Source: an uncultured Burkholderiaceae bacterium
Lineage (GTDB): Bacteria > Pseudomonadota > Gammaproteobacteria > Burkholderiales > Burkholderiaceae_F
Direction of reading: 5' to 3'
DNA length: 40,000 bases
Assembly (NCBI GenBank): GCA_944390675.1
Contig: CALXQR010000003.1
Location: 123,896-163,895, forward strand
Of this stretch, positions 10,194-38,038 are shown piece after piece. The notes beneath the pieces were generated by a model that ran no database searches, was not told the origin of the DNA, and saw only the letters and a list, made by a program, of their open reading frames with translations. A program made the position numbers and the translations under genes. The stretch's first letter is position 1; the number at the start of each line of letters is the position of its first letter.

Positions 10194-10215
10194 TAACATG
10201 CAGGATTCTACGTGT

Positions 10216-13485: not shown

Positions 13486-15391
13486 AAACTATCGAGGCAT
13501 GAGCTCGAAGTCAACGGCAATGCCCGGTCGCTACAACGCATCAATCACGCCCTGGATCAGCGGGATTCATGAAGCTCTGGATGATCCAAAAGTCGAGCGC
13601 GTGGTGGCGCAAAAAAGTGCTCAGGTGGCCTGGACTGACGGTGTGCTTTTGAACTACATCGGACGCCGCATTGATCTGGATCCGTGCCCGATGATCGTTA
13701 TGTTTGCCAAGCGAGAATCGGCCAAGGATTTCAATGATGAGAAGCTCGTGCCGATGATTGAGGCGACGCCTCACCTGTCGACCAAGATTCCGATCACTTC
13801 CAAGCGTGACAAAAACAACCGTTTTGACTTCAAGGGATTCCCTGGAGGTTTTTTGAAGCTTGTGGGATCCAATTCACCGTCTGAAGTGAAGTCAACGCCG
13901 GCCCCGGTCGTGTGCGTTGAAGAGCCGGACGATTGCAACACAAACGTAAAAGAGCAAGGCGACACAATCGCGCTACTGATTGAGAGAACGAAGTCCTTTG
14001 CCAGGCGAAAGATCATTTACGGTGGAACGCCGACAGTTGAAGGATTCTCGGCTGTTGAGTTTGCCTATAAAACGTCTGACAAACGCAAGTTTTATGTGCC
14101 GTGCCCGGACTGCGGCGAAGAGCATGTGCTCAGTTGGGATAACGTGCGCTGGAATGAGGATGAGACCTTAAACCATGAGATCTTTGGAAAGGCTGTTCTG
14201 GATTCTGCTGCCTACATTTGTCCGCACTGCGGCTCAGTCTGGGATGACGTTAAGAAAAACCGGGCTGTGCGAAAAGGTGTGTGGCGTGCTGAGGGGCCGT
14301 TCAACGGAACAGCGGGCTTTTACATCAACGAGCTTTACTCACCGTTTCCAGGTTCAAAGCTGAAAATTCTTGTCGAAAAATACTTGACGGCCAAACATGA
14401 GCTTGATCAGGGCAAAGACGGCAAGATGCGTAGTTTTTTCAATTCGCAGCTGGGTTTGCCTTATGCCTTTAAGAGCGGTCTGCCGGATGCCGATGTGCTT
14501 GCAAAGCGAGCCGAGTCTTACGACGAATTTACAGTGCCGGTTGTGGGTTGCGTTCTGACGGCTGGCGTTGACGTGCAGCACGACCGTCTGGCAGTGATCA
14601 TCCGAGCCTGGGGTCCGGGTGAGGAAAGCTGGTTGGTTTACTGGGGCGAAATTCCCGGACAGACCATGACGCCGGAGCGGGGTGCTTGGGTCGATTTGGA
14701 TGCGCTCTTAAAGCGTGACTTTAAGGCAGTCAATGGTGCCAGTCTCAAGATACGGGCGGTTTCTATCGACTCATCGGATGGCCAAACAAGCGATGCGGTC
14801 TACTCGTTTGTGCGCCGGCGTATGGCTCGGGGTTTGATGGCAATTAAGGGCTCTTCGGTCAATGATGACCGCAAAGAGATCTTTACGCCTCCAAAGCCTT
14901 CAATCGATGTCAATGGGCGGCAAAAATCGCTGCGTTTTGGCTTAAAGCCGTTCATTGTCGGCACCAGCAGAGCAAAAGACTTGATCCTTGGAGTGGATGC
15001 CAATGCCGGCCGCATCAAGCTTGAGGGAGACGGCCCTGGGCACATGCACTGGTACAGTGGCGTGCGTCCGGACTACTGGGAGCAGATCACCAGCGAGGTG
15101 AAGGTGCCGAGCAGCCATAGCGCAAAGCGCGTCTGGCAGAAAAAGTCCGGCGTGCGCAATGAGGCGCTTGACTGTGAGGTTTATGCGCTTCACGCTGCCA
15201 GATCCTTGAAGCTGCACCTTTGGAATGCGGCCAAATGGGATCTGGAAAGGCAAAAGCAGCTGCAGATGGATCTGATTGATGTTGCAGAGCAAAAACCTGC
15301 AGAGGAAAAGATTGAAGAGAAACGCGAAGAGGCAAAACCGGTTCGGGATGACTTTTTCGATGCGTTTAACCGAAGAGGTGACGAATGGTAG
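13424..15391 (+). CDS. Terminase large subunit, lambda GpA family
   Basis: RLSEILRAPEKMGTTQWAENYRGMSSKSTAMPGRYNASITPWISGIHEALDD parallels the lambda gpA N-terminus. A zinc-ribbon-like CPDCGEEH...CPHCG is present. Start chosen at MARLSEIL. Confidence 0.9.
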   Translation: MARLSEILRAPEKMGTTQWAENYRGMSSKSTAMPGRYNASITPWISGIHEALDDPKVERVVAQKSAQVAWTDGVLLNYIGRRIDLDPCPMIVMFAKRESAKDFNDEKLVPMIEATPHLSTKIPITSKRDKNNRFDFKGFPGGFLKLVGSNSPSEVKSTPAPVVCVEEPDDCNTNVKEQGDTIALLIERTKSFARRKIIYGGTPTVEGFSAVEFAYKTSDKRKFYVPCPDCGEEHVLSWDNVRWNEDETLNHEIFGKAVLDSAAYICPHCGSVWDDVKKNRAVRKGVWRAEGPFNGTAGFYINELYSPFPGSKLKILVEKYLTAKHELDQGKDGKMRSFFNSQLGLPYAFKSGLPDADVLAKRAESYDEFTVPVVGCVLTAGVDVQHDRLAVIIRAWGPGEESWLVYWGEIPGQTMTPERGAWVDLDALLKRDFKAVNGASLKIRAVSIDSSDGQTSDAVYSFVRRRMARGLMAIKGSSVNDDRKEIFTPPKPSIDVNGRQKSLRFGLKPFIVGTSRAKDLILGVDANAGRIKLEGDGPGHMHWYSGVRPDYWEQITSEVKVPSSHSAKRVWQKKSGVRNEALDCEVYALHAARSLKLHLWNAAKWDLERQKQLQMDLIDVAEQKPAEEKIEEKREEAKPVRDDFFDAFNRRGDEW

Positions 15392-15930
15392 AGACATTGA
15401 TTGTCGGCGACAGTGCCAGTTGGAGCTTTCGACTTGCTGATCTGCCGGCTTTTTCCGGTGCTCCTGAAGGTGCGACGCTCTCGGCATTCTTGAGATCGGC
15501 CGGGGAGTTGATCAACCTAAAGGCCGAGGCGCTCAATGGTCGAATCTTTGCGAGCCTGGATCCCAAAGCATCGGCAAAGCTTACCGTTGGGAAAGCGTTT
15601 TTGCTGCTGCGCTTGGTATCAGAGGCGGATCAATACCAAAAATCTGCAGTGGTCAAAGAGCTGCAGGTTGTGCCGGCGGTTGATGATGAAGGTTTTGATC
15701 ATCGAACCGAAGCTCAAAAGTGCTTGGCACAAGCCGAAGCGGCTTTGGTTGACTACACAAAAGGCGGCGGTCGCGTGAAAAGCTACACAATCGGCACGCG
15801 GTCGACGACTTTTAACAATCTGCAGGAGTTGACGGATTTAGTTGAATACTGGCGGAAGCGAGTTTATTTGGAGGCCTGTGCGCAGCAGGGCATTGATCCT
15901 CGCCGGATGTTGGTGGAGTTTGTTCCATGA
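15385..15930 (+). CDS. Head-tail joining protein with a gpW-like C-terminal region and an N-terminal extension
   Basis: The C-terminal AEAALVDYTKGGGRVKSYTIGTRSTTFNNLQELTDLVEYWRKRV resembles lambda gpW. The gene sits between terminase and portal, as in lambda. Confidence 0.5.
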   Translation: MVETLIVGDSASWSFRLADLPAFSGAPEGATLSAFLRSAGELINLKAEALNGRIFASLDPKASAKLTVGKAFLLLRLVSEADQYQKSAVVKELQVVPAVDDEGFDHRTEAQKCLAQAEAALVDYTKGGGRVKSYTIGTRSTTFNNLQELTDLVEYWRKRVYLEACAQQGIDPRRMLVEFVP

Positions 15931-17429
15931 GTATTTATGACGAACTAATGAAACGCTTTGAGCGAGGCAAAGACGGCAAGCTCAAGTTTCGCATGTTTGC
16001 TGGCGCAAAAGGCGGACGGCTGACTAATGATTGGGCTGCCGGCGGCACGTCTCAGGATAGTGAGTTATTCACGAGCCTGGCAGCGCTTAGAAATCGGTCC
16101 CGGCAGATGATTCGGGACAATCCGCACGCTGCAAACCTGCAGCGCATTGTGATTGACAATGTGGTGGGCACTGGTATTGGCCTGCAGGCTCAGGTAACAA
16201 AGCGCGATGGATCTCCGGATCAATCGGTTAACGATCAAATCGAAGAGGCTTGGCAGCGGTGGTGTGAAAAAGATACCTGCCACACTGCCGGGCAGCTTGG
16301 CATGACCGAGCTTTTGCGCATGGCTATCGGTGGCGTGTTTCAGGACGGTGAGGCCATCATCCGGAAAGTACGCCGGCCTTTTGGTCAAGGTCGAATTCCG
16401 TTTGCCTTGGAGGTGATTGAACCGGATTTGCTTTTGGACCATGGCGTGGGCACATACATGGGGCAAGCCGGCAACACGATACGTTTTGGCGTTGAAGTTG
16501 ATCAGTGGCAGCGTCCCGTCGCCTATTGGATGAGGCGCTTTCACCCGGGGGACTTTGCCTATGCGGGTGAGATTCATCGAGAGGCCATGCGCCGGATTCC
16601 TGCAAAGGACATCGAGCACTTGCACTTGGTTTCCCGGTGGCCGCAAACGAGAGGCGTCCCTTGGATGCACATGGTTATCCGCAGGTTGCGGGATATGGGC
16701 GGCTACACCGAAAGCGAACTGACGGCAGCTCGAGCGGCGGCAAACATCATGGGTTTTGTGCAGCAAAGTCTGGACACGTTGGACCCGAGTGATTTCGACA
16801 AACTCAAGAAAGTTGATCGCTTCATCAAAAGTGAGCCGGGAACATTCCAGCGATTGCTCCCAGGTGAAACTTTTAACGGCTTTGCTCCAAGTCGGCCCAA
16901 TGCACAGCTCGATGGCTTTATGCGCTACATGCTGCGCGAGGTTGCTTCTGGTGTTGGCGTTTCGTATGAGTCTCTGAGCCGCGATTACAGCCAGAGCAAC
17001 TACTCTTCGAGCCGTCTGGCGCTGCTTGATGACCGCAATCAATGGAGAGTGCTGCAAAGTTGGTTGATCCGCAATTACTTGCATGACATTTACCGAGAGT
17101 GGCTTGATGCTGCAGTAATTAGCGGAGCGGTTCGGATTCCCGACTATTTCAACCGCAAGGAGCACTACCAAAAGGTGCGCTTCAAGCCGCGTGGATGGTC
17201 CTGGGTGGATCCGCAAAAGGAAGTGCAGGCTTACGTGTTGGCTGTTCAGCACGGCTTCATGTCCCGCAGTGATGTGATTGCCGCAATTGGCAACGGCCAA
17301 GATCGTGAGGATGTTGACAAGATGATCAAGAGCGATCGGGAGCGAGCGAAGGCATTAGGGCTTGATTTCGATACCGAAACAATCAAAGAGCAGTCAACAG
17401 GAAATGGCGAAACAGAAACCGGTGAATGA
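15927..17429 (+). CDS. Portal protein, lambda (gpB) family
   Basis: ALRNRSRQMIRDNPHAANLQRIVIDNVVGTGIGLQAQ is typical of Phage_portal_2. 500 aa, with an ATGA overlap with the upstream gene. Confidence 0.9.
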   Translation: MSIYDELMKRFERGKDGKLKFRMFAGAKGGRLTNDWAAGGTSQDSELFTSLAALRNRSRQMIRDNPHAANLQRIVIDNVVGTGIGLQAQVTKRDGSPDQSVNDQIEEAWQRWCEKDTCHTAGQLGMTELLRMAIGGVFQDGEAIIRKVRRPFGQGRIPFALEVIEPDLLLDHGVGTYMGQAGNTIRFGVEVDQWQRPVAYWMRRFHPGDFAYAGEIHREAMRRIPAKDIEHLHLVSRWPQTRGVPWMHMVIRRLRDMGGYTESELTAARAAANIMGFVQQSLDTLDPSDFDKLKKVDRFIKSEPGTFQRLLPGETFNGFAPSRPNAQLDGFMRYMLREVASGVGVSYESLSRDYSQSNYSSSRLALLDDRNQWRVLQSWLIRNYLHDIYREWLDAAVISGAVRIPDYFNRKEHYQKVRFKPRGWSWVDPQKEVQAYVLAVQHGFMSRSDVIAAIGNGQDREDVDKMIKSDRERAKALGLDFDTETIKEQSTGNGETETGE

Positions 17430-17454
17430 GCCGGTTTTTTATTAGGGGGAAAAG

Positions 17455-19341
17455 ATGCCCAAAGAACTTAGATTCCGATCGCTGGCGGTCGCTGAGTCGG
17501 AGGTCAATGAGGAAAGCCGCACAGTGCGTTTTCCGGTGGCCTCTGATACGCCGGTGGATGTCGGATATGGGACTGAAACGCTTAGCCACGACATTGGGGC
17601 TATGCGCAACGGTGAGCGGCAGCAGTCGATGTCGCTTTTGTTTAACCACGATCGAGACAAGCTTTTGGGTGTGGTTGAGCGGCTCGAGCAGGATGAGCAC
17701 CGAACCTATGCAACGGTTCGATTTGCAAAAACTGACGAGGCGCAGCGGGCTTTTGAGCTCGTGAAGGACCGCATTCTGGTCAATGTCTCGTGCGGTTATC
17801 GCGTCTATGCCTTTGACCAGTCGAGGGATGGCACGAAGTTTTTAGCAAAAGACTGGGAAATTTATGAAGTCTCCCTGGTAACTGTGCCGGCCGACACGTC
17901 GGTGGGTGTTTACCGGAGTTTGAGTGATCCTAATGAAGGAGAAAAAGCAATGACGACGAGTCAACAGCCCGGCAAGAATGGGGCGGCCGGAGATCCCAAG
18001 CCCGCAGATATTGATGTCGAAAAAGTGCGCAGTGCCGAGCGCAAAGCCGAACGTGAGCGCATCCAGGCAATCGAAACGATGTGCCGTGATTTCAACGTGC
18101 CTCTCGAGCAGCGCCAGAAGCTGATCAATGAAGGGCACTCGATCGATGAGGCTCGAGCCATGGTTATGGAAACGATTCGTGGCCGTAGCGCCAATCCCAC
18201 CGGTGATTCGAGCCGTGCACACAATGACTTTGACATTGGTCTGAGCGAAACCGAACGCAGCCGTTACAGTCTGGTGCGCGCCTTAAATGCGGCTTTGACG
18301 AACGATTGGCGTCAGGCCGGATTCGAGCGCGAAGTGTCCCAGGAATTGGCCCGCCGTATGCAGCGCGATACCGCAGGCTTTTTTATGCCGACCAACATCA
18401 CGTTGGGTCGCCGTGACGATCCTACGCCTGGCTACTTTGCAAGTCCTGCAACCCAGGGCGGAAATTTGATTGCTACGCAGCTTTTGACTGGTTCCTTTAT
18501 CGAAGCGTTGCGAGCTCGAGCCATGGTGATGCGCTTGGGTGCCACGCTTTTGACAGGCCTTGTCGGCAATGTTGAGATCCCGCGCCAAAGCGGCGTTTCC
18601 ACGGTTTCTTGGATTTCGGAAACCGGTACGGTGACAGGCACCAATGCGACTTTCGACAAGGTTCCTTTGTCCATGAAGACGGTTGCGGCAAAGTCTTTCA
18701 TTTCCCGCAATATGCTCAAGCAGGCCTCTTTGGATGTGGAGCTCTTTGTACGCAATGAGTTGATCACTTCAATTGCTTTGGGCGTGGATTCTGCGTGCTT
18801 GATCGGCACCGGCAGCAACGGTCAACCTAAGGGCATTTTCAACCAGACCAATGTCGGTAAGGTAGGCGGCACGACCGGCACGGATCTGAGCTTTGATCTC
18901 TTGATCGACATGGAAACCCAGGTTGCGGCAGCCAATGTGGTCGGCGATGCCATGGCTTACATGTGCAACGCCCGCACCATCGGAGCGCTCAAGAAACTCA
19001 AGGATGACAACGGCCAGTATCTCTGGAAGTCGATCGACAAGGGATTTGCCAACGGTACACCCGGCGAAGTCAATGGCTATCCGGTTGCTCGCAGCAATCA
19101 GCTTCGCTCCAACATCACTGTTGGTGAGTCGCCTAGCCAAAAGACCTGCTCTGAACTTGTGTTCGGCAACTGGTCTGACATCGTGATCGGCGAATGGGGC
19201 GTGGTTGAGCTCTTGCCCAATCCGTTCTCTGCAACGGCCTATGACAATGGCGGCGTGGAAATCCGCGCGCTGCAGTCGCTTGATGTGGCCGTGCGTCATC
19301 CGGAAAGCTTCTGTATTTTCAATGACGCCGTTTTGGCTTAA
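17455..19341 (+). CDS. Fusion of HK97-type prohead protease (S78/U35), scaffold-like linker and HK97-family major capsid protein
   Basis: N-terminal LLFNHDRDKLLGVVE...ILVNVSCGYRV...WEIYEVSLVTVPADTSVGV carries the protease His/Ser motifs. The middle is a coiled linker, EKVRSAERKAERERIQAIE. The C-terminal ~400 aa have capsid motifs (GGNLIATQLL...VEIPRQSG...WISETG...). Confidence 0.85.
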   Translation: MPKELRFRSLAVAESEVNEESRTVRFPVASDTPVDVGYGTETLSHDIGAMRNGERQQSMSLLFNHDRDKLLGVVERLEQDEHRTYATVRFAKTDEAQRAFELVKDRILVNVSCGYRVYAFDQSRDGTKFLAKDWEIYEVSLVTVPADTSVGVYRSLSDPNEGEKAMTTSQQPGKNGAAGDPKPADIDVEKVRSAERKAERERIQAIETMCRDFNVPLEQRQKLINEGHSIDEARAMVMETIRGRSANPTGDSSRAHNDFDIGLSETERSRYSLVRALNAALTNDWRQAGFEREVSQELARRMQRDTAGFFMPTNITLGRRDDPTPGYFASPATQGGNLIATQLLTGSFIEALRARAMVMRLGATLLTGLVGNVEIPRQSGVSTVSWISETGTVTGTNATFDKVPLSMKTVAAKSFISRNMLKQASLDVELFVRNELITSIALGVDSACLIGTGSNGQPKGIFNQTNVGKVGGTTGTDLSFDLLIDMETQVAAANVVGDAMAYMCNARTIGALKKLKDDNGQYLWKSIDKGFANGTPGEVNGYPVARSNQLRSNITVGESPSQKTCSELVFGNWSDIVIGEWGVVELLPNPFSATAYDNGGVEIRALQSLDVAVRHPESFCIFNDAVLA

Positions 19342-28544: not shown

Positions 28545-28937
28545 ATGCTTGGAGTCATAGGAACTTTTGGGAGTCTCCCGTTTGTGTGTTCGGCCGATGT
28601 CGTGCACACATTTAAGGATCTCTCGCGCGAAACATCGACTCGATGGGCTCGGCATGAAGTCATTGGACAGAAACCGGTTTTGGAGTGGATCGGTGACGAT
28701 TTGGCCAGAGTCACTTTCAAGATTCGGTTTGATGCGACGCTCAGAACGCCTCCTGTTGCCGGACTGATTGTGCTCAATCGACTTTTGAAAGGTCACGAAA
28801 GTCATGTGTTGGTGATTGGCGGCGAGTACCTTGGTAAGTTTGTGATTGAGTCGGTGAGCGAAAACCGAAAGCACTTTGCGGGAGCCGGCGTTTGTTTGGT
28901 GGCTGAAGCAACTATTACCTTGACGGAGGCCGCATGA
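28545..28937 (+). CDS. Tail protein gpU-like
   Basis: FGSLPFVC...HTFKDLSRETSTRWARHEVIGQKPVLEWIGDDLARVTFKIRF...GKFVIESVSE parallels the P2 GpU family pattern. Confidence 0.6.
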   Translation: MLGVIGTFGSLPFVCSADVVHTFKDLSRETSTRWARHEVIGQKPVLEWIGDDLARVTFKIRFDATLRTPPVAGLIVLNRLLKGHESHVLVIGGEYLGKFVIESVSENRKHFAGAGVCLVAEATITLTEAA

Positions 28938-29260
28938 GTGAATACCTGGTGAATTTAAAGCAGGGAATTGACTTTGCTCCCTCATCGGAAATTGCAGAGA
29001 TTCTGCAGAACGTCCGAACCATTTTGACGACGCGCCTGGGATCTGTACCGCTCGAAAGAGATTTTGGTCTGTCCTGGGAGCACATCGATCAGCCGATCAA
29101 TGTGGCTAGAGCTCTTATGAAGGCCGAAATTATTGAGGCTGTTGAGCGTTTCGAGCCGAGGGCCATTGTTGAGGCCGTGAGTTTTGATGAGAGTGTCGAG
29201 GATGGCCAGGATGGTCTGACTCGGCCCAGAGTGACAATCAGCATTAAAGGAGAGGCTTAA
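28934..29260 (+). CDS. Baseplate wedge protein gpW / T4 gp25-like
   Basis: ILTTRLGSVPLERDFGLSWEHIDQPIN...KAEIIEAVERFEPRA is the GPW_gp25 pattern. Confidence 0.8.
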   Translation: MSEYLVNLKQGIDFAPSSEIAEILQNVRTILTTRLGSVPLERDFGLSWEHIDQPINVARALMKAEIIEAVERFEPRAIVEAVSFDESVEDGQDGLTRPRVTISIKGEA

Positions 29261-30400
29261 ATGAGTCAAGAGGTTATTCCTCGGTGGGGATTGCCAGCTG
29301 TTGATTTTCTGAAAACAGATCCGGAGACAATCAAAACCGAGATCATTCGAGAGTACGAAAAAATCGCTAATGTGACGCTCGCAGCCGGGGATCCTCGCCG
29401 GCTGTTTTTATTGGGGCTTGCAGCAACCATCATCCAGTTGAGAACAGATGTGAATTATGCTGCGCAGCAAAACTTGCTTTCCTATGCGCAAGGCGAGTAT
29501 TTGGATGCCTTGGGGGAATCGATCGCGGTTGAGCGCCTTGGAGCATCCAAGGCTGCCACAACCTTGAGGTTTACCTTGTCTCAAGCATTGGGCAATGCGT
29601 TTGTGATTCCTGCTGGCTTTGAGGTCTCGGCTGGCGAAGTGACCTTTTCAACCGATGAGGAGTGCGTAATCGAGCCCGGCGATCTGACCGGTGATGCACC
29701 GGCTTCATGCGTGCAGGCCGGCGAAGTGGGAAACGGTTTTTTAGCGGGACAGATCTCCACAATCGTCTTACCGATGGCGTATTTGGCTTCGGCGGAAAAT
29801 CTCACTGAAAGCCAAGGCGGAACGGATGTCGAGGGAGATCCAGCGTATGCCGAGCGCATCCGGCTGCGTCCGGACAGTTTTTCAGTGGCTGGTCCCGAGC
29901 TTTCCTACATCTATTACACCAAATCGTATTCCCCGGCGATAGTGGATGTTGCCGTCACCTCTCCTGTTGCAGGCGAAGTGGATGTGTATCCCCTGCTTGA
30001 GGGCGGGGAGCTTCCAAACGAAACCTTTCTTGAGGGATTGCTTGAGCACTTAAGTGACGAAACTATCCGGCCGCTGACTGACTATGTAAAAACCATTGCG
30101 CCGACGGCTGTCAACTACAAAATCGTGGTGGATTACTGGGTTAATCGAACCGATGCCAATAAGCTCGAGACGATCCAAAGGGCTGTGACTGAAGCAGTGG
30201 AGTCTTACCGCTTATGGCAGCAGTCGAAAATCGGCAGAGACATCGTGCAGGATGAGCTGATTGCCAAAGTCAATGCAGCCGGTGCGGCGCGAATTGATCG
30301 AACGACGCTTTTGCCGGTGGCTTTTACCGCTCTTGGTGCTACCGAAGTGGCGCAGTGCACCGGCGTTACAGTCAATTTCAAGGGCTATAAGGATGAGTAA
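29261..30400 (+). CDS. Baseplate protein gpJ-like
   Basis: 379 aa. Its position and length fit the Baseplate_J family. Coupled starts, GGAGAGG RBS. Confidence 0.8.
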   Translation: MSQEVIPRWGLPAVDFLKTDPETIKTEIIREYEKIANVTLAAGDPRRLFLLGLAATIIQLRTDVNYAAQQNLLSYAQGEYLDALGESIAVERLGASKAATTLRFTLSQALGNAFVIPAGFEVSAGEVTFSTDEECVIEPGDLTGDAPASCVQAGEVGNGFLAGQISTIVLPMAYLASAENLTESQGGTDVEGDPAYAERIRLRPDSFSVAGPELSYIYYTKSYSPAIVDVAVTSPVAGEVDVYPLLEGGELPNETFLEGLLEHLSDETIRPLTDYVKTIAPTAVNYKIVVDYWVNRTDANKLETIQRAVTEAVESYRLWQQSKIGRDIVQDELIAKVNAAGAARIDRTTLLPVAFTALGATEVAQCTGVTVNFKGYKDE

Positions 30401-31110
30401 TGAAAACGATCAAGGATGTACTGCTTGAGGATTTGCTGCCTGAAAGTCTGACGCATGATCAGCAAATGGCTACAGCGGCTGCAGCGGTGGATCCTCAGTT
30501 AAGAGCAGTTGCCGGCGTCGTGGATGTGGTTGCGATCTACGCGCACATTGATGAGTTGACGAGCGAGCAGCTCGATCACTTTGCGGTTGGCCGCAATCTC
30601 ACGACGTGGCGCGAATCGTGGCCGTTGGATCTAAAACGCTCGGTTGCGAAATCCATTATTGCTCAAAAGGCAAGAATGGGCACGTTGTCGGCCGTTAAGA
30701 ATGTGCTGGCCTCTTTGGGATCTGCCGTCTCCATTGTTGAGTGGTGGCAGGAAAGCCCAAAAGCGGCTGCGCATACATTCAAAATCACAGCGACGTTAGG
30801 CGACATTGAGGGGACGCTCACCGAGCAAATGCAAGAGGATTTTTTCCTGCTGCTTGATGCCTCAAAGCCGGTGAGATCTCACTACACCTTCACGCTCAGC
30901 CAAAACGTCAAAGGAGGGATTCAAGTCGGAGGTGCGGCAAGCACAGCAAGTTTTGCAAGGGCGTCAGGGCAACGAAAGCCATGGCGTTTGGGCATTCAGA
31001 TCGGGCCGATTATCCGGCCCGTTTCTGTAAGTGCTTTTCAGGTCGGCCGCAAGGCCGTTTTTTGTCACATGCGACTGGCAAACGTTTTGCGCGTGGTGAC
31101 AGTCGCGTAA
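30400..31110 (+). CDS. Tail protein gpI-like
   Basis: LLPESLTHDQQMA...ARMGTLSAVKNVLASLGSAVSIVEWWQESPKAAAHTFKI parallels P2 gpI ...HKGTIGAIRRVVEPLGYLINVTEWWENSDPPGTFRL. Confidence 0.8.
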   Translation: MKTIKDVLLEDLLPESLTHDQQMATAAAAVDPQLRAVAGVVDVVAIYAHIDELTSEQLDHFAVGRNLTTWRESWPLDLKRSVAKSIIAQKARMGTLSAVKNVLASLGSAVSIVEWWQESPKAAAHTFKITATLGDIEGTLTEQMQEDFFLLLDASKPVRSHYTFTLSQNVKGGIQVGGAASTASFARASGQRKPWRLGIQIGPIIRPVSVSAFQVGRKAVFCHMRLANVLRVVTVA

Positions 31111-31123
31111 TAAGGAGCTTTTA

Positions 31124-32887
31124 ATGGCTTACGTTTTAACCATCACTGATGCAGGCCTCGCCGCGTTGGTGAATGCCCAAAAGAACGGGACAACACCCGT
31201 GATTTTTGAAACGGTACAGTTCGGCACTGGGAAATATACGCCGACAGGGCAGGAAACTGCGCTGCAGGCGTCGTTCAAAACCCTGGACACGATTCAAGGC
31301 GGTGCGGTTGGAGACAATATCATTCATGTGACTGTTTCTGACTTTTCTGCAGAGGCCTATACGGTTTATGAGGCCGGTATCTTTACTGACGATGGTGTGC
31401 TTTTTGCTGTGATCAGTCAAGATACGCCGTTGGCCCAGAAGGCCGCCGGCTCTCAACTTTTGATGTCCTTTGATCTGGTGCTCGAGCAAGCCGGAGAAAC
31501 AGACATCGAGTTGGGTAACACGAACTTTTTCAATCCTCCGGCCACAACGACAACAGCCGGCATTGTCCGGATGGCCACGGCAGCAGAGGTAGAGGCTGGT
31601 CTTTTGTCTGGTGTTGCTGTCTCGCCAGCCGGGCTTAAAGCCAAACTTGAAAAACCCGGGAGCCTCAACGGCAGTGCTTTCCAGGACGGGTCGATCGGCT
31701 TAGGCAAGCTTTCCGAAAAGCCGGTAAGCACCGCCGAGCAAACACTGACGCCGCAAGAGCAGCAGCAGGCTCGAGAAAACATGGGCTTGACAGAGGCTGG
31801 CACGACGCAGCTCATCATTGCTTCGTCGCCTCGTTGGTACAAGCGGCCGAATTTGCCGACGGTGGCCAAAACGTCCGTAACGATTCCCGCCAATACGCAG
31901 GTCAACATTGGCAACGCGGGCTACATCAGCACAACGGATACCACGCTGCAGCTAAGCACTGTGGGAGAGGCGGCCGCTCGAGCGGGCAAGGATGTATACA
32001 TCTACGCCTGCAAGCCGACATCTGGATCCGAACCGGTGTTTGTGCTTTCTCTCAACAGTACAGTGCCGACCGGATATAACGCTCAAAACTCTCGGAAAAT
32101 CGGCGGATTCCATTGCTTGTGCGCCTCTGTTGGCACGATTTCGGGGCATACGTTGAGCGGCTATGCAGCCGGCGACATCTTGCCTTTGTCCGTTTGGGAT
32201 CTGCTGCACCGGCCGGTGAGCGAGCCGGAGGGCATGGTTTGGATTGAGGGATTGGGCATTTGGGTCGATATTTATCTCGGGTCTTACAACGGCAGCAAGC
32301 TTGTGAGCGCCTACGGAGCATTGACTGCTGACGGCTCTTCGAGTCCCGCTTTCCACGGTGAGAAGTTCGCTGAGTATGCAGGATTGGTCGGCAAGCGTTT
32401 GGTTCGTCGCGATGAGTTCATTGTGTTTGCAAAGGGCTCAAACGAGGAAACAAGCATTTCCGGAGGTGTGGATCCAAATACGACCGGCGGACACGTGGAT
32501 ACGGCTGGCCGCAGAATGATTTCGAACTATGGTATTGAGGACTGCTGCGGGGCGTTGTGGCAATGGACTTCAGATGTTTTTGATTCCTGGGATGGTCACA
32601 GCGCGACTTGGCGAACAGAGTCCAATTCCGAAACGTATACCGAGGGCGAGATGCGTTACTACCTCGATGGCTATTCGTGGAAAAAGGAGAGCGTATTTAA
32701 TCCCGCTTTCGATTCCACTGGGCACGGCTCTTGCATCGGTTTGCTGCGTCGCGGCCTTGTTGGGGCGTTCTGGGGCGACGGGTCGCTTTGCGGTTCTCGC
32801 TCGGCGGTTCTGTACTACTTTTCGTCTCGCGGCTGGGCTTATAACGGGTGCCGGCTTTCGTCCGAGCCACGGGTCGTAAACCTCTAA
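31124..32887 (+). CDS. Tail fibre / receptor-binding protein, DGR target (gpH-like N-terminus, variable C-terminus)
   Basis: The N-terminus VLTITDAGLAALVNAQKNGTTPVIFETVQFGTGKYTP...YEAGIFTDDGVLFAV parallels the P2 gpH N-terminus. The last ~50 codons are the VR. WQWT and ...GFWGDGS.CGSRS....GCR features resemble Mtd/FGE-type CLec variable domains. Confidence 0.85.
   Translation: MAYVLTITDAGLAALVNAQKNGTTPVIFETVQFGTGKYTPTGQETALQASFKTLDTIQGGAVGDNIIHVTVSDFSAEAYTVYEAGIFTDDGVLFAVISQDTPLAQKAAGSQLLMSFDLVLEQAGETDIELGNTNFFNPPATTTTAGIVRMATAAEVEAGLLSGVAVSPAGLKAKLEKPGSLNGSAFQDGSIGLGKLSEKPVSTAEQTLTPQEQQQARENMGLTEAGTTQLIIASSPRWYKRPNLPTVAKTSVTIPANTQVNIGNAGYISTTDTTLQLSTVGEAAARAGKDVYIYACKPTSGSEPVFVLSLNSTVPTGYNAQNSRKIGGFHCLCASVGTISGHTLSGYAAGDILPLSVWDLLHRPVSEPEGMVWIEGLGIWVDIYLGSYNGSKLVSAYGALTADGSSSPAFHGEKFAEYAGLVGKRLVRRDEFIVFAKGSNEETSISGGVDPNTTGGHVDTAGRRMISNYGIEDCCGALWQWTSDVFDSWDGHSATWRTESNSETYTEGEMRYYLDGYSWKKESVFNPAFDSTGHGSCIGLLRRGLVGAFWGDGSLCGSRSAVLYYFSSRGWAYNGCRLSSEPRVVNL
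32730..32865 (+). repeat. DGR variable repeat (VR)
   Basis: Gap-free alignment to 33050-33185 (offset 320). There are 20 mismatches, 19 of them opposite TR adenines. Confidence 0.9.
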
Positions 32888-32989
32888 CCGGAGGGCCGAG
32901 GAGGTCGCGGTCTGCAAACCGCAAGTCGGAAAGTAATGCCGGCGAAGCCGGCCGCGCAATTTTTTAAGGAGGGCTTTAACAAAAGGGTA

Positions 32990-33019
32990 TTGCCATCAGC
33001 GCCCCCCCCCATCTAAAAT
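32990..33019 (+). promoter_or_regulatory. Candidate promoter for the TR-RT transcript, with a C9 tract in the spacer
   Basis: TTGCCA (32990-32995), 18-nt spacer containing CCCCCCCCC (33002-33010), then TAAAAT (33014-33019). TR begins about 30 nt downstream. Confidence 0.45.
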
Positions 33020-33049
33020 GCCTTACGGCTGAAAGATCTCCAGTGAAGG

Positions 33050-33185
33050 CTTGCATCAGTTTGCTGCGTCGCAGCCATGTTGGGGCGAACTGGGGCAACA
33101 GGTCGAATTGCGGTTCTCGCACGGCGAATCTGAACAACTTTTCGTCTAACAGCTGGGCGAATAACAGGTGCCGGCTTTCGTCCGA
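33050..33185 (+). repeat. DGR template repeat (TR)
   Basis: 136 nt with 27 adenines, concentrated in AAC/AAT/AGC codons when read in the fibre frame. Noncoding in its own context; the track ORF start at 33168 is spurious. Confidence 0.9.
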
Positions 33186-33311
33186 TACGCAGAGTACAGG
33201 CTTTGCCTAATCCCGCGGCTGGATCTTTTGGCCTTCTCGAAAGGGAAAACACACAAAGGGAATGAGGTGCGGCTAGTAGCAATAAGCGAACGTCGTGCCT
33301 CATACATTTCA

Positions 33312-34337
33312 ATGAAAAGACATGGACATCTTTGGGACAAGCTCGTGGATCCTGAAAATCTGCGGCTTGCGATCAAGAATGCCTCAAGGGGGAAGCGCTG
33401 GCAGCGCAAAGTTAAAAAAGTGCTTGCCAGGGAGGATGAGTGTGTGCAGGAATTGCACAACATGCTCATCAGCGGCCAATACCATACAGCAAAGTACAAA
33501 ACAAAGGTCATATACGAACCCAAGCAGCGCACAATCTTCATTTTGCCGTTTTATCCGGATCGAATAGTGCACCATGCCATCATGCAAGTGTTGGAGCCCA
33601 TTTGGGATGGGCTTTTGATCTCCGATTCCTACGCTTGTCGAATTGGCAAAGGTCAGCACGCCGGATCTCGGCGGTGCATGCAATGGACAAGGCAATTTAA
33701 GTATTGCTTGAAATGTGATGTGAGCAAGTTTTATCCCTCGCTCGATCATGAGGTCCTCAGAAAAATCATTCGTAAGAAACTCAAGGATCCGTTCCTTTTG
33801 AATCTTTTGGATGAGATTATCGGCAGTGTGCCAAATGGCAAAAATGTACCGATTGGAAATTACTTGAGCCAATGGTTTGGCAATATCTACCTCAATGAGC
33901 TTGACACCTTTATTAAGCAAGAAAAGCGAATCAAGCCCTATTTGCGCTATTGCGATGATTTCGTCATTTTTTCAAACGACAAAAGCGAGCTTCATGCGCT
34001 TGCCGGTGAAATCAAAGATTTCCTTGGCAGCAAGTTGCTCTTGCGTTTGAGCAAGTGTGAAGTTTTTCCGGTAACTCAGGGAATTGATTTTCTTGGATAT
34101 CGTCATTTTCCGCAAGGTTACATTCTGGTGAGGAAATCGACGGCCAAGCGAGTCAAAAAACGGATGTCGGTTGTATTGCATGAATTGGAGTCAGGCAGGC
34201 TGACGGTTGAGAGAGCGACCGCGAAAGTGGCCAGCACCGAAGGGTGGCTTAAACATGCCAACACGAGGCATTTCAGTTTGTCATTAAAACTGGCAGAGAT
34301 CAAAAAGGAGATAGCAAATCATGAAAAAGTTCAGTGA
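33312..34337 (+). CDS. DGR reverse transcriptase
   Basis: MKRHGHLWDKLVDPENLRLAIKNASRGKR N-terminus, SYACRIGKGQHAG, DVSKFYPSLDH, the DGR-specific IGNYLSQWFGNIYLNELD, the catalytic RYCDDFVIF, and GIDFLGYR. Confidence 0.9.
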   Translation: MKRHGHLWDKLVDPENLRLAIKNASRGKRWQRKVKKVLAREDECVQELHNMLISGQYHTAKYKTKVIYEPKQRTIFILPFYPDRIVHHAIMQVLEPIWDGLLISDSYACRIGKGQHAGSRRCMQWTRQFKYCLKCDVSKFYPSLDHEVLRKIIRKKLKDPFLLNLLDEIIGSVPNGKNVPIGNYLSQWFGNIYLNELDTFIKQEKRIKPYLRYCDDFVIFSNDKSELHALAGEIKDFLGSKLLLRLSKCEVFPVTQGIDFLGYRHFPQGYILVRKSTAKRVKKRMSVVLHELESGRLTVERATAKVASTEGWLKHANTRHFSLSLKLAEIKKEIANHEKVQ

Positions 34338-34605
34338 CTTTGCGGATGAGCAAGGGCTCGTTGGAGAAAAAATGCCCGTCGCTGAGGTTTTCAATAAAAC
34401 CATTGTCGTGACCGGTTTTCGCGTCATCGACTCTAAAGCAGTCAAGGGCAAACGCTGCCTGCAGCTGCAGTTTGAACTGGACGGCGAAAAGCATGTGCTT
34501 TTCAGTACCAGCGAAGTGCTGTTGCGGCAAACCGAAAAATATGCCGAGCATATTCCGTTTGAAACGGTTATTAAAAAGGTCGGCAGTTATCACACATTTA
34601 CTTAG
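34321..34605 (+). CDS. Hypothetical protein (94 aa) translationally coupled to the RT
   Basis: The ATG overlaps the RT 3' end by 17 nt. No family recognised, and it is not Avd-like by eye. Confidence 0.6.
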   Translation: MKKFSDFADEQGLVGEKMPVAEVFNKTIVVTGFRVIDSKAVKGKRCLQLQFELDGEKHVLFSTSEVLLRQTEKYAEHIPFETVIKKVGSYHTFT

Positions 34606-34614
34606 GTGATCAAA

Positions 34615-34926
34615 ATGCAAGGTTTTCCGAAAACTTTAAACACCCGCGAGGATTATGAATATGTCCGTTTGAATTTTGCAAAAGAGCTCTGGGCTCCTGA
34701 GTTTCAGGCTCTTTTGGATTCGAATTACGGATGGTTTTTCGTCAAGGAATTGGGCGAGGATGAACCTGGCGTGACCGATGACACGCATAAGGTTGAAGAG
34801 CAGCACGACACGTCCGGCGATGCCGAAAAAGTGGTGCGCTATCAGTTTGAATATCGAGAGGTTGAAAACAGCAAACTCAAGCGCTTGGGATATAGCGTTT
34901 CAGAGGTGCAAACATTGCTTCAATAA
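34615..34926 (+). CDS. Hypothetical acidic protein (103 aa), last gene of the DGR unit
   Basis: AGGTGA RBS before ATG 34615. Followed by a strong terminator. No family recognised. Confidence 0.6.
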   Translation: MQGFPKTLNTREDYEYVRLNFAKELWAPEFQALLDSNYGWFFVKELGEDEPGVTDDTHKVEEQHDTSGDAEKVVRYQFEYREVENSKLKRLGYSVSEVQTLLQ

Positions 34927-34948
34927 AGTTTTCGGAGAGCAATAAGAA

Positions 34949-34972
34949 ACCCGCCAGCGTGCGGGTTTTTTA
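34949..34972 (+). terminator. Rho-independent terminator closing the fibre/DGR unit
   Basis: ACCCGC-cagcgt-GCGGGT followed by TTTTTT. Confidence 0.7.
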
Positions 34973-34995
34973 TTGCCTCCGATCAGGAGAAAACA

Positions 34996-35460
34996 ATGTT
35001 GACAACGATTTTGCCTCAGGGCGCAGAAAGATCTCTCATGATTTTAGGTGGCACCGTGGGCGGATTTTTAAGTTTTGCATTCGGAGATATAGGCCCGCTT
35101 TTTATGTGGCTGATTATTTTCGTATGCATCGATTTTATTACAGGGACATTGGCCTCTATTGTCCGGGGGACCTGGACCAGCAAGCAGTGCGGTATCGGAG
35201 TCATCAAAAAGGTTCTGTACTTCTGCATTGTGGCCTTGGCTCACGGGCTTGATGTCGTTTTTAGTTCGCTCATTCATGTTGAGATTTTGCAATCGATTGT
35301 TATCTGCGCCTACGCGGCTGGGGAAGTCGGCAGCATCTTGGAAAACATTGAGGCTTGTGGATTTGGCAGCGTCATTCCGTCCGGCATTCGTCGATTGATC
35401 AAAGCGCTTAATGAACGGGTTGAAAACGCTGTGGATGATTTTGAGGGAGGAAAAAAATGA
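34996..35460 (+). CDS. Holin (Phage_holin_4_1 / TcdE-like family)
   Basis: WLIIFVCIDFITGTLASIVRGTWTSKQCGIGVIKKVLYFCIVALAHGLD matches the family pattern. Several TM helices; lies directly upstream of the lysozyme gene. Confidence 0.75.
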   Translation: MLTTILPQGAERSLMILGGTVGGFLSFAFGDIGPLFMWLIIFVCIDFITGTLASIVRGTWTSKQCGIGVIKKVLYFCIVALAHGLDVVFSSLIHVEILQSIVICAYAAGEVGSILENIEACGFGSVIPSGIRRLIKALNERVENAVDDFEGGKK

Positions 35461-35912
35461 AAGCGGACAGTTTTGGTGCGTTTCAGCCGGCAATCGCTGC
35501 AGATTTTGTGGCGCAGTTTGAAGGCTTGAGACTTAAGACTTATCGATGCCCTGCTGGGGTTTTAACGATCGGCTATGGGCATACCGGTCCCGATGTGACG
35601 GAGGATCTTGAAATTACCGAACAGAGAGCCAAGGTGCTTCTTTGTGAGGATCTTGCAAAACATGCGCAAGCCCTTTCCCGGTACGTCAATATTCCAATTA
35701 ACGCCAATCAGTTCATTGCGCTGCTTTCCTTGGCGTTCAATGTCGGCGTGCATGCCGTGGCCAGTTCAACTCTCTTGCGACTGATCAACACGGGGCGCAT
35801 CCAGGAGGCTGCAGACCAGTTTCTGCGCTGGAATAAGTCCGGCGGCAAGGTGCTCGATGGCCTGACTCGCCGGCGCGAAGCAGAAAAGGAGTTGTTTTTA
35901 AAAGATGAGTAA
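35457..35912 (+). CDS. Endolysin, GH24 lysozyme
   Basis: FEGLRLKTYRCPAGVLTIGYGHTG and NQFIALLSLAFNVG motifs. ATGA overlap with the holin gene. Confidence 0.85.
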   Translation: MKADSFGAFQPAIAADFVAQFEGLRLKTYRCPAGVLTIGYGHTGPDVTEDLEITEQRAKVLLCEDLAKHAQALSRYVNIPINANQFIALLSLAFNVGVHAVASSTLLRLINTGRIQEAADQFLRWNKSGGKVLDGLTRRREAEKELFLKDE

Positions 35913-36342
35913 GTACCTTTACGCGATCTGCGCTCTGGCTGGGTTTGTCTTGGGGTGGTTCGTTACTTCGTCTGGGTATAAGGCGGAAATCGCGGACATG
36001 GAAAGAGAAAATGCTCGAGCCGTTGAAAAGTTAGTGGAGTCACACAATGAAAAACTGGAAAACGAAAGTCGGGTACTGGCTCAAGCTATTAGCGAGCGTG
36101 ATGCTGAGATTGATCGTGCTCGCCGGCTTGAGCTTGATCTTGCTCGTTATGCTCAGCGGTTGCGCGACGCGCAGCGTGCCAGTAGAGTGCCCGCAGCCAA
36201 CACCGATTCCGGCCAGTCTGGTAAGCGATCAGACGACCGCTGTGGAGAGTTGCTTGTCCGACTTTCGGAAAGCGGTTCAGGATGCTGCGTATTACTTGGA
36301 AAGCTTAACACGGACCGGAACGCAGTAAGAAAGCTGCAGTGA
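35905..36342 (+). CDS. i-spanin (Rz-like)
   Basis: N-terminal TM helix YLYAICALAGFVLGWFV followed by a charged coiled region. Located after the endolysin gene. Confidence 0.7.
   Translation: MSKYLYAICALAGFVLGWFVTSSGYKAEIADMERENARAVEKLVESHNEKLENESRVLAQAISERDAEIDRARRLELDLARYAQRLRDAQRASRVPAANTDSGQSGKRSDDRCGELLVRLSESGSGCCVLLGKLNTDRNAVRKLQ
36101..36328 (+). CDS. o-spanin (Rz1-like lipoprotein) embedded in the +1 frame of the i-spanin gene
   Basis: MLRLIVLAGLSLILLVMLSGC has the lipobox L-S-G-C, followed by a Pro-rich mature part (CPQPTPIP). The gene lies entirely within 35905-36342. Confidence 0.65.
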   Translation: MLRLIVLAGLSLILLVMLSGCATRSVPVECPQPTPIPASLVSDQTTAVESCLSDFRKAVQDAAYYLESLTRTGTQ

Positions 36343-36347
36343 ATTTT

Positions 36348-36374
36348 GCCCGGGCGCGCCCCGGGCTTTTTTTT
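36348..36374. terminator. Bidirectional terminator between the lysis cassette and int
   Basis: GCCCGGG-cgcgc-CCCGGGC followed by TTTTTTTT. Confidence 0.75.
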
Positions 36375-37737
36375 ATTCAATGCCGAGCGTTTTCTTTTTA
36401 ATGGCTGAAACTTCGCTCATGCAGAACTTAGCCCAGGCATCAAAGACCAGTCGCATTTCTCCAATCGCCTGGTCGCGATCATAGGCACAAGAGTAGTTTT
36501 CATGGCTGTGATCCAAGCAGCTTTCACGGATATCCCAAGAAAATTGAGGATGGTTAAAGCCGCTTGCATCTTTTGCCCAGGTGTTGAAAGTCGCTCGAGC
36601 AAGTCCATGAGGCGTCACTCGACGCGGAAAACCGGTGGGGTTGAGTTGATTGAGATCCACCCAGCCGATGCCGTCAAGCTTTTTCTTTTCCATGTGCAGC
36701 GTTTTGATAGGCTTTGAGAGGCCGTCAAGTGACATGGGTTCAAATCGTCCTTCTCGGATGTTTGGAAAGACAAAAGGACACTCAAGTTCGAAGCGCGGAG
36801 CGGTTTTCAAAAGCCAAAGCGCTTCAGGCGACAAAGGTGTTTTTCTGTCGAAAGGGATCTTGTTCTTTTTCACTTTCATGCGCTCGCGAGGGATGACGTG
36901 CATGGATCCTTTTGGGGAATCCCAGACGATTTCATCCCATCGGGCTTCTCTGGCAGTGGAGTTTCTGGCTGCCGTGAGGATGGCAAAGGCGAGACACCGT
37001 GCGCCCTGAGAGGTTCGCACGTGATCGAGCAGCGCGGCAAAAAACGCCGGCATTTGATCCGGTGGCAAGGCTGGTTCATTGCCGCTTTGCGGCCGCTGCA
37101 GAGGCAGGAGATCTCCGAGACGGCCATCTTTGACTTGGGCCGGATTGGGGCCTGCAGGGATGAGTTTTTCTCGCATAGCCCAGTCGATGGCCTGTTTGAG
37201 ATCCGACAGGATTCTTTCAGGTGTGTCGATCATTGTGCGCCATTTTTCAGCGAACACGTCAGCCAGGCGCTCAGCGGTTAGTTGAATGACCGGCATTGTG
37301 GCCACGTCAACCGGTACATGATTGCGCAGATACCCGAGCCATAACTCATCCCGGGGGCGTGAGGCGTCAGCCCAGCGGCCACGTGCCACATTGAAGTCAA
37401 TCCACTTGAAAATCAACTCCTCAACGGTCAGGCTTTTGTGCTGGATGGCCATACGTTTGATTTTTTGCTCTTCAGATGGATCTATGCCTTCATCGAGCTT
37501 TTTGCGCCAGTCTGCAGCCTTTTTGAAGGCTTCGGCCAGAGACATTTCTGGATAGGCTCCCAGGGCAAAATGGCGTGTTGCTCCGTTTCTTTGATAGCGC
37601 AGGAAAAAATACTTTCGAATGTAGCCGTTTTGCAGTTTTGATACCTTGATAATGAGGCCAGGGACGCCGCCGCAGGAGGTTGTTTTTGTGATGCTCTGCA
37701 GCTTTTTGTCGGTGATCTTGGGGAGCAGCTTTGGCAT
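36373..37737 (-). CDS. int: Tyrosine integrase, P4-type (DUF4102 arm-binding N-terminus)
   Basis: GLIIKVSKLQNGYIRKYFFLRYQRNGATRHFALGAYPEMSLAEAFKKAADWRKKLDEGIDP is the N-terminal domain. The C-terminal catalytic region has ...TPHGLARATFNTWA... and HSHENYSCAYDRD (catalytic Tyr). Start at MPKLLPK with an AGGA RBS. Confidence 0.9.
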   Translation of the reverse strand: MPKLLPKITDKKLQSITKTTSCGGVPGLIIKVSKLQNGYIRKYFFLRYQRNGATRHFALGAYPEMSLAEAFKKAADWRKKLDEGIDPSEEQKIKRMAIQHKSLTVEELIFKWIDFNVARGRWADASRPRDELWLGYLRNHVPVDVATMPVIQLTAERLADVFAEKWRTMIDTPERILSDLKQAIDWAMREKLIPAGPNPAQVKDGRLGDLLPLQRPQSGNEPALPPDQMPAFFAALLDHVRTSQGARCLAFAILTAARNSTAREARWDEIVWDSPKGSMHVIPRERMKVKKNKIPFDRKTPLSPEALWLLKTAPRFELECPFVFPNIREGRFEPMSLDGLSKPIKTLHMEKKKLDGIGWVDLNQLNPTGFPRRVTPHGLARATFNTWAKDASGFNHPQFSWDIRESCLDHSHENYSCAYDRDQAIGEMRLVFDAWAKFCMSEVSAIKKKTLGIE

Positions 37738-37749
37738 ATCATTTCCTTT

Positions 37750-37817
37750 TATAAGTAACAATGAAATTTCCCGGATCGCAAAAACGGTGTTTTTGTTACT
37801 TATAGTTGTTACTTATA
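37750..37817. repeat. Candidate integrase arm-type binding sites
   Basis: TTGTTACTTATA at 37793-37804 and 37806-37817 (tandem), and its reverse complement TATAAGTAACAA at 37750-37761. They lie between int and the att core. Confidence 0.55.
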
Positions 37818-37953: not shown

Positions 37954-37961
37954 TGGAATCC

Positions 37962-38038
<77 letters not shown>

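Follow-up and report, generated by a model that had tools for sequence, protein, structure and literature searches.

A diversity-generating retroelement without a detectable avd gene in a temperate prophage of a Sutterellaceae-like gut bacterium, and a small protein family linked to its reverse transcriptase

How does a diversity-generating retroelement (DGR) diversify a phage receptor-binding protein when its cassette is without a detectable gene for the accessory protein Avd? This question is raised by a locus in a stretch of 40,000 nucleotides (hereafter the window) from an uncultured Burkholderiaceae bacterium (GenBank assembly GCA_944390675.1, contig CALXQR010000003.1, positions 123,896 to 163,895 of the forward strand), where the tail fibre gene of a prophage is followed by a template repeat (TR), a structured RNA, a reverse transcriptase (RT) and a small open reading frame (ORF) of 94 amino acids, ORF94. 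To our knowledge, Avd is essential in the only DGR system that has been studied well. With high confidence, the locus is a DGR of the type found in Bordetella phage BPP-1, which is carried by a ~35.5-kb temperate, contractile-tail prophage and diversifies the tip of the fibre, while ORF94, as judged from its sequence associations and a structural model, is probably a DGR accessory protein other than Avd. The components that carry this argument are located as follows, with positions counted from the first letter of the window:

31124-32887, plus strand: tail fibre gene of 587 amino acids, the DGR target, recognized by Pfam, a sequence match to Mtd and an AlphaFold model
32730-32865, plus strand: variable repeat (VR), corresponding to fibre residues 536-581 of 587, which differs among four related prophages
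32847-32865, plus strand: candidate 3' boundary resembling an initiation of mutagenic homing (IMH) element, a GC-rich stretch of 19 nt, GGTGCCGGCTTTCGTCCGA, identical in VR and TR
33050-33185, plus strand: TR of 136 nt with 27 adenines, identical in the related prophages L001 and L002 and with one change in L003
33186-33311, plus strand: TR-RT spacer of 126 nt, a structured RNA with its core at 33202-33306, supported by covariation
33312-34337, plus strand: DGR RT of 341 amino acids (BPP-1 bRT 8ub7, E 4e-48; Pfam RVT_1; PHROG 1423, E 1e-113)
34321-34605, plus strand: ORF94, a small protein of 94 amino acids resembling an oligonucleotide/oligosaccharide-binding (OB) fold, overlapping the RT stop by 17 nt, with AAGGAG as its Shine-Dalgarno sequence

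VR and TR align without a gap over 136 nt at an offset of 320, with identity dropping to background right outside, and a repeat finder independently recovers the same pair as family D1. The adenine signature is directly visible in this alignment, as 19 of the 20 mismatches are located at TR adenines and the sole other one, TR G33159 versus VR T32839, is synonymous. Given a TR composed of 27 A, 41 G, 35 C and 33 T, the probability that at least 19 of 20 mismatches fall on the 27 adenines is 5.5e-16 (hypergeometric/Fisher); the substitutions comprise nine A>T, eight A>G and two A>C. A preliminary description of this DNA, made from the letters alone, had reported the gapless alignment with its offset and length, the 19 adenine mismatches and the peptides encoded by the two repeats, and exact alignment, per-base tally and translation reproduce all of them. 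Read in the fibre frame, the 27 TR adenines without exception occupy codon position 1 or 2 and never position 3, for which the chance is (2/3)^27 or ~2e-5, with AAC or AAT accounting for nine of the adenine-bearing codons. This placement is the classic DGR design, in which amino acid change is maximal and stop codons are avoided. No further VR-like copy was found in the window when the 109 non-adenine TR positions were scored on both strands. At the 3' end of the repeats, the GGTGCCGGCTTTCGTCCGA stretch, the TR copy of which is located at 33167-33185, is free of adenine until its last base. The homology of VR and TR ends abruptly after it, and the flanks, GAGCC behind VR versus GATAC behind TR, keep their difference in distant relatives. 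By its sequence the stretch is a candidate IMH-like 3' boundary, a function that we infer from these features.

The RT belongs, on sequence comparison, to the DGR class. Its closest solved relative is the BPP-1 RT (bRT; alignment starting at RT residue 2), whereas group II intron or retron-type RTs match with an E value of 5e-18 or weaker, and the two motifs already singled out in the preliminary description are found at 33852-33872 (IGNYLSQ, of the (I/L/V)GxxxSQ type of motif 4) and 33948-33959 (YCDD, the catalytic YxDD box). The target, on the other hand, is a composite protein. Fibre residues 2-123 constitute a P2-type fibre N-terminal domain (Pfam Phage_tail_fib), and by tblastn the first 230 amino acids show 33-44% identity to fibres of Smp131, KL3 and other P2-like phages that adjoin gpI, in agreement with the gpH-like N-terminus proposed beforehand. 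Residues 246-359 are the Mtd second domain (Pfam mtd_2nd, E 1e-25), and residues 252-577 align with the crystal-structure sequences of BPP-1 Mtd at an E value of ~6e-17. An AlphaFold (AF2) model of residues 231-587, with a predicted local distance difference test (pLDDT) score of 89, matches Mtd 1yu0 in a Foldseek search (E 3e-22, template modelling score 0.73), followed by TaqVP, formylglycine-generating enzymes (FGE) and TvpA, to which the C-type-lectin/FGE fold is common. The fibre C-terminus is, as modelled, a C-type-lectin/FGE-like domain that displays the VR, which is the fold that the earlier reading had anticipated.

Does the cassette leave a trace of its activity in nature? Three prophages found with the RT protein, L001, L002 and L003, in assemblies named Sutterella sp. 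and Candidatus Aphodousia faecavium, are 95%, 97% and 90% identical, respectively, to the window over 11.7 kb. The TRs of L001 and L002 are the same as in the window and the TR of L003 differs at one base, while the VRs of the three prophages differ from TR at 22, 19 and 21 positions, all of which are adenines (22/22, 19/19 and 21/21). Among the four VRs, including the one of the window, 19 positions vary and 18 of these are TR adenines. The synonymous G-to-T change at 32839 (versus TR 33159) is present in the window VR only and not in the other three prophages. In the TR of L003 (position 5765), T is found in place of A33077, and every VR also shows T at this site.

The same pattern is seen at the protein level. 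The 90%-identity protein cluster of the fibre has 171 members, and 15 full-length sequences (the window fibre and 14 members) were compared. The VR peptides are distinct in all 15, with a mean column entropy of 0.58 bits in VR versus 0.03 bits elsewhere, and the other 541 residues contain 31 variable columns, 30 of them two-state and one three-state. Taken over 19 natural VRs, 14 protein columns are variable, and 13 of these are located at adenine-templated codons; the exception is a single Trp-to-Gly replacement at residue 571 (W571G) in one member. Apart from W571G, all variant repeat residues are reachable via A-to-N changes, for example ATC to I, F, L or V and CAT to H, L or R. The heterogeneity at adenine-templated positions, the search for which the preliminary description had proposed, is thus found across related genomes and cluster members, not within one sample. 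An invariant TR combined with hypervariable VRs is the footprint of mutagenic retrohoming. The natural-population evidence of DGR activity is unusually clear, and the DGR is functional or recently functional.

Between TR and RT the cassette contains a second conserved element. The spacer is a conserved, covarying structured RNA related to the DGR motifs of Rfam, with an architecture kept across more than 40 related loci. Five helices are supported by RNAalifold and by an explicit count of pairs in 21 diverse spacers. Among the elements of the RNA are a long-range helix, a pair of small hairpins and an AAAAYACA motif (33246-33257). A further stem of 12 bp, formed by 33262-33273 with 33292-33303, covaries and has UAGUAG, a small hairpin and CGAAC in its interior. 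In the alignment 92.9% of the cells pair, versus 73% in column shuffles and 38-52% with partners slid, compensatory double changes are present in 18 of 27 pairs, and the observed covariation score is reached by none of 500 shuffles. No Rfam family matches the window region or 16 related loci at gathering threshold. Full-length but sub-threshold, the window spacer scores 28.9 bits with RT-14 (RF02921, threshold 48.1), 22.4 bits with Phage_DGR (RF03022, threshold 50) and 17.6 bits with RT-17 (RF03020, threshold 40.4), and in all three, as in the window, AAAAYACA precedes a long stem with UAGUAG, a hairpin and CGAA inside. A covariance model of the spacer recovers the element, just upstream of the RT, in loci not used in building it, namely L106 with 93 bits, L017 with 88, L018-L020 with 54, L004 with 34, L030 with 29 and the archaeal virus ANMV-1 with 23 bits (22.6).

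Avd is a basic protein of about 128 amino acids, which forms a four-helix bundle (Pfam PF05635). BPP-1-type cassettes that possess it correspond to Architecture B in Wu et al. 2018. No match to the Avd family is found by Pfam in the 39 window ORFs, nor in the subsets scanned with PHROGs and NCBIfam, and the 184-nt gap between VR and TR (32866-33049) contains no ORF. The window cassette is without a detectable Avd gene. Of the analogy to the mtd/TR/brt cassette of BPP-1 drawn in the preliminary description, the adenine signature, the RT and the Mtd-like target hold, but with no avd the analogy is incomplete. Among DGRs in general, avd is present in 74% and absent from 26%, with an accessory-free 'Architecture A' consisting of the TR-RT core, for which Avd-independent homing has been proposed (Wu et al. 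2018; PMC5758913).

ORF94 finds no match in Pfam, PHROGs, NCBIfam or PADLOC. In a HMMER scan of 1.84 billion representative proteins the family nevertheless has 867 members, 389 of them at E<=1e-10, which are mostly 93-110 amino acids long and represent at least 867 clusters at 50% identity; the isoelectric point (pI) of ORF94 is 7.9 and the family mean 8.0. Of 45 distant loci seeded on the RT, 30 have a homologue with 31-49% identity next to the RT; these loci carry the names of Clostridia, Bacteroidetes, Rhizobiaceae, Patescibacteria and viral contigs. Seeded on ORF94 itself, with a narrower alignment of the family, the search yields 56 viral loci, in 50 of which a DGR RT ends just upstream, the other six being partial matches. 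Besides the window, ORF94 is found in L004-L028, L049-L101, L105 (3480-3776) and L106 (3495-3782). Its position varies, as it directly follows the RT in some loci but occupies the VR-TR gap in L006, L008, L021, L025, L026 and L028, which is the slot of Avd in BPP-1. Three proteins (P0035, P0102 and P0134) are in-frame fusions of RT and ORF94 in which the initiator methionine of ORF94 is still present. ORF94 also accompanies targets without the Mtd second domain and is found in two archaeal viruses, ANMV-1 included, and the genes beyond it differ between loci.

Which fold and, by extension, which role might this protein have? In the AlphaFold model of ORF94 (pLDDT 86), five strands form a barrel and a helix is inserted between the third and the fourth, which is the topology of the OB fold. 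Among the predicted viral structures in BFVD, this model resembles RT-domain proteins most (E 8e-7 and 2e-5); uncharacterised viral proteins, more RT proteins and some single-stranded DNA-binding proteins match more weakly. RT proteins of a crAss-like phage are among the structural matches in BFVD. In the crAss-like phage cr55_1 (L109, 2417-3742), the annotated RT extends ~84 amino acids past the region homologous to the window RT; with an hhalign E value of only 0.011, no claim is made that this C-terminal extension is an ORF94 domain. ORF94 was also considered as an Avd homologue and rejected as such, with an hhalign probability of 0.2% versus BPP-1 Avd, no PDB sequence match at E values up to 10 and a beta-barrel model.

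That ORF94 is the nucleic-acid-binding cofactor of the RT in place of Avd is slightly favoured on this combination of synteny, gene fusion and modelled fold. The wider proposal, a widespread OB-fold-like family that serves as RT cofactor of a large Avd-less DGR clade in bacterial phages as well as archaeal viruses, is evenly poised. If true, ORF94 fills the role of Avd with an unrelated fold, and the proposed 'Avd-independent' homing gains a concrete, testable protein. With respect to an OB-fold or Avd-independent DGR accessory protein, the searchable literature, the tentative accessory genes PAG1-4 of Wu et al. aside, gave only the hypothesis of that survey.

Several findings weigh against an active DGR assisted by ORF94. 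The lysogen of the window is known from one assembled sequence, and the evidence for activity comes from its relatives. The adenine-bearing TR codons 539, 544, 553, 570 and 575 are restricted in the VRs, as four of them are always Gly in the VRs examined and residue 570 is Gly or Cys. A canonical hairpin directly after VR was not found, the nearest ones being located at +42 and +73 nt. The role of ORF94 rests on association, fusion and predicted fold, its model is without a significant match to a PDB structure, the weak top matches being OB-fold proteins, and some related RTs have a different small ORF instead. As the five codons are not freely variable, the retrohoming output is strongly filtered or biased; selection for scaffold residues or biased misincorporation could be the cause of the fixed Gly residues. 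The adenines of these codons (TR nt 33058, 33073, 33100, 33151 and 33166) are in 'AG' context (AGT, AGC, AGG), and comparable fixed A-to-G positions (CAG to CGG, AGT to GGT) are seen in the distant relatives L014-L016, L040 and L049-L051. As to the RTs that are not accompanied by ORF94, in L029, L035, L038 and L041-L048 related Avd-less RTs are directly followed by a different ORF of ~100-200 amino acids. The three such replacement ORFs examined (L010, L035 and L041) have no NCBIfam match, and these ORFs may represent another accessory family.

How far, then, can the locus be explained otherwise? The repeat pair might be an ordinary duplication that diverged neutrally or by recombination, beside an RT derived from an unrelated group II intron, retron or defence element. 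Models of group II intron and defence RTs do appear among the NCBIfam and PADLOC matches, but far below the curated cut-offs where these are provided, and the E value of the RT's best solved relative, a DGR RT, is better by 30 orders of magnitude. Moreover, no intron RNA family was found with Rfam, and such a duplication is already refuted by the TR/VR tallies, with an adenine bias of P=5e-16 and all variable columns but that of the single Trp-to-Gly change at adenine-templated codons; its probability is negligible. A fossil cassette, which once diversified the fibre and has since fallen silent, so that the VR differences among relatives are inherited relics, would agree with the single assembled sequence of this lysogen and with the four adenine-bearing codons that are fixed as Gly in every VR seen, the fifth being only Gly or Cys. 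However, the cassette has an intact RT, with its catalytic YCDD, as well as an intact TR, spacer RNA and ORF94, and although identity between the prophages is only 90-97%, their TRs agree at 135-136 of 136 positions. As all 15 VR peptides differ in fibres of more than 90% identity that are otherwise near-invariant over 541 residues, VR turnover is much faster than background divergence. A silent relic is accordingly improbable.

Independently of the activity of the DGR, ORF94 might be a passenger outside the DGR, for example a fibre assembly chaperone or a gene of the lysis region, that is merely syntenic with the RT. The protein is without a recognisable family or motif, genes of fibre chaperones often come right behind those of fibres, ORF94 directly follows the target in some loci and, as said, some related RTs do without it. 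On the other hand, the RT ends immediately upstream in 50 of the 56 ORF94-seeded loci, and ORF94 shifts between the place behind the RT and the VR-TR gap yet always stays within the cassette, while the genes past it vary by locus. The three in-frame fusions with the RT are independent of each other, the predicted viral structures most similar to ORF94 are RT-domain proteins, and the gene also accompanies targets devoid of the Mtd second domain and is found in archaeal viruses. A passenger is considered rather unlikely in view of the fusions, the near-obligate linkage to the RT and the variety of target types.

The preferred interpretation, a DGR that diversifies the fibre tip with ORF94 as partner of the RT, can be translated into a working model, in which the cDNA and homing steps are likely by analogy to BPP-1. 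An RNA across TR (33050-33185) and the structured spacer (33186-33311) would be made and copied into complementary DNA (cDNA) by the RT (33312-34337), which would be faithful at G, C and U but misincorporate opposite adenines. The cDNA would subsequently replace VR (32730-32865), with the 3' limit presumably set by the GC-rich identical stretch and the divergent GAGCC/GATAC flanks. As a consequence ~14 codons in the C-type-lectin tip of the Mtd-like receptor-binding fibre would be randomised, while TR would remain intact as the master copy. ORF94, translationally coupled to the RT, may act as the RT cofactor that replaces Avd; the spacer RNA or the cDNA is its probable ligand.

Three further features of the cassette region are of less certain relevance:

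32907-32952, plus strand: two hairpins 3' of VR, GCGGT-CTGCAA-ACCGC (32907-32922) and GCCGGC-GAA-GCCGGC (32938-32952)
32990-33019, plus strand: sigma-70-like promoter match, TTGCCA and TAAAAT with an 18-nt spacer, 10 of 12 positions
34606-34926, plus strand: ORF106, an acidic protein of 106 amino acids with a pI of 4.7 directly after ORF94, the membership of which in the cassette is uncertain

A GC-rich hairpin or cruciform after VR is present in BPP-1 and a subset of DGRs, but not universal. In the window, the second hairpin precedes a T-run and is terminator-like. As the fold energy of the hairpins is ordinary (z=0.06) and they are not kept in distant relatives, a role in homing is doubtful. 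The promoter match, ~30 nt upstream of TR, reflects consensus only, and the number of such matches in the region equals the expectation from shuffles. ORF106 has no match in the family libraries (Pfam, PHROGs, NCBIfam and PADLOC), and among the distant loci its homologues follow ORF94 only in L004 and L018-L020.

The element that carries the cassette is a temperate, contractile-tail (myovirus-like) prophage of ~35.5 kb, integrated at tRNA-Pro of a Sutterellaceae-like gut bacterium. A contractile-tail temperate phage had been suggested from the outset, and sheath, tube, gpV/W/J/I/U/X/D, an integrase and a CI repressor are indeed present. The prophage is bounded by the left and right attachment sites attL and attR, a direct repeat of ~20 nt with one indel at 2486-2505 and 37961-37982. 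The tRNA-Pro gene (37962-38038, minus strand) abuts the integrase and its 3' end is repeated at 2486-2505, with an old tRNA terminator hairpin just left of attL. Genes for regulation and replication encode a CI-type repressor, Rha and a primase. The head module (13361-19341) is of lambda type, with a gpA terminase, a lambda-family portal and a 628-amino-acid fusion of prohead protease and major capsid protein; the tail genes encode sheath, tube, tape measure and P2-type gpX/D/V/U/W/J/I, and after the tail follow fibre, DGR, holin, lysozyme, an Rz-like gene and integrase. The phage is thus a mosaic of modules, in which a lambda-type head is joined to a P2-type tail. A megablast search with 28900-36400 gave no match among GenBank phages.

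Just outside attL, an OLD-family/GajA-like ATPase-TOPRIM nuclease is encoded at 743-2437 (PADLOC GajA, E 1e-115), which no GajB-like helicase adjoins. Inside the prophage, a SieB-like superinfection-exclusion protein is encoded at 11056-11670 (Pfam SieB, E 5e-10). Directly after the primase gene, at 10215-10269, tandem 11-nt repeats (TTGTGCAGGGT-like) form four overlapping 22-nt copies with 11-nt spacing; they are iteron-like and may mark a replication origin.

That DGRs act on phage receptor-binding proteins is well established, and ANMV-1 provides a published cassette of essentially the same layout (PMC4372165). For the Sutterellaceae, the locus is a well-documented case of a prophage with tail-fibre diversification, and no paper that pairs Sutterella with a DGR was found in the searchable literature. 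What could be important is the conserved, RT-coupled non-Avd protein family together with its RNA partner. With regard to the working of Avd-less DGRs, the locus and its relatives point to a small protein coupled to the RT and a covarying RNA. RT, ORF94 and the TR-spacer RNA, together ~1.6 kb, represent a compact set for reconstitution and for comparison with bRT-Avd, which is also relevant to directed-evolution tools based on DGRs.

Compared with known systems, the P2-like (Peduovirus-type) phages share with the window prophage the fibre N-terminus beside gpI and gpV, W, J, I, U, X and D as well as tube and sheath. They differ in head and packaging genes, which are lambda-type in the window, and in the distal fibre, which in the window is Mtd-like and not gpH-like.

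With the mtd-avd-TR-brt cassette of BPP-1, the window has in common that the target is a true Mtd homologue with VR in the last ~50 codons of its C-type-lectin domain, that TR is located upstream of a spacer and the RT, the latter matching bRT at 4e-48, and that the cassette resides between tail-fibre and lysis genes near an attachment-site end. The layout of fibre or mtd, DGR, small ORFs, lysis genes and attachment-site end is shared between BPP-1 (L108, 140-4583) and the window (31124-37761), although the virion types differ. In contrast to BPP-1, the window has no avd and its 184-nt VR-TR gap no ORF; the spacer RNA model of the window clade finds no match in the BPP-1 spacer; the window target has a P2-type fibre N-terminus and belongs to a contractile tail instead of a BPP-1-type tail; and the OB-fold-like ORF behind the RT is unrelated to bbp4, which is found at that place in BPP-1.

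The Avd-less DGRs of 'Architecture A' and Lineage 3 (Wu et al. 2018; PMC5758913) resemble the window in the order of target, TR and RT and in that no avd, HRDC, MSL or CH1 gene is present, but the window possesses a conserved extra ORF. CH1, at 160-169 amino acids and acidic, also differs from ORF94 with its 94 amino acids and pI of 7.9.

An identical gene order is found in the archaeal virus ANMV-1 (KP703175; PMC4372165), in which target (adtA), TR, RT and a 98-amino-acid ORF94 homologue (42% identity, E 1e-15, pI 9.1, 11.4 kDa) follow each other as in the window, whereas the host is archaeal and an Mtd second domain is not detectable in the target AdtA. The homologue is labelled hypothetical in the GenBank record KP703175. 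In the corresponding publication, a figure legend has an 'Avd' ORF in the ANMV-1 cassette, for which homology is not shown, and elsewhere Avd-like ORFs are called on pI and mass alone (Paul et al. 2015; PMC4372165). As the pI of 9.1 and the mass of 11.4 kDa of the ANMV-1 homologue fit these criteria, the ORF94 family may already have been labelled Avd informally, without homology.

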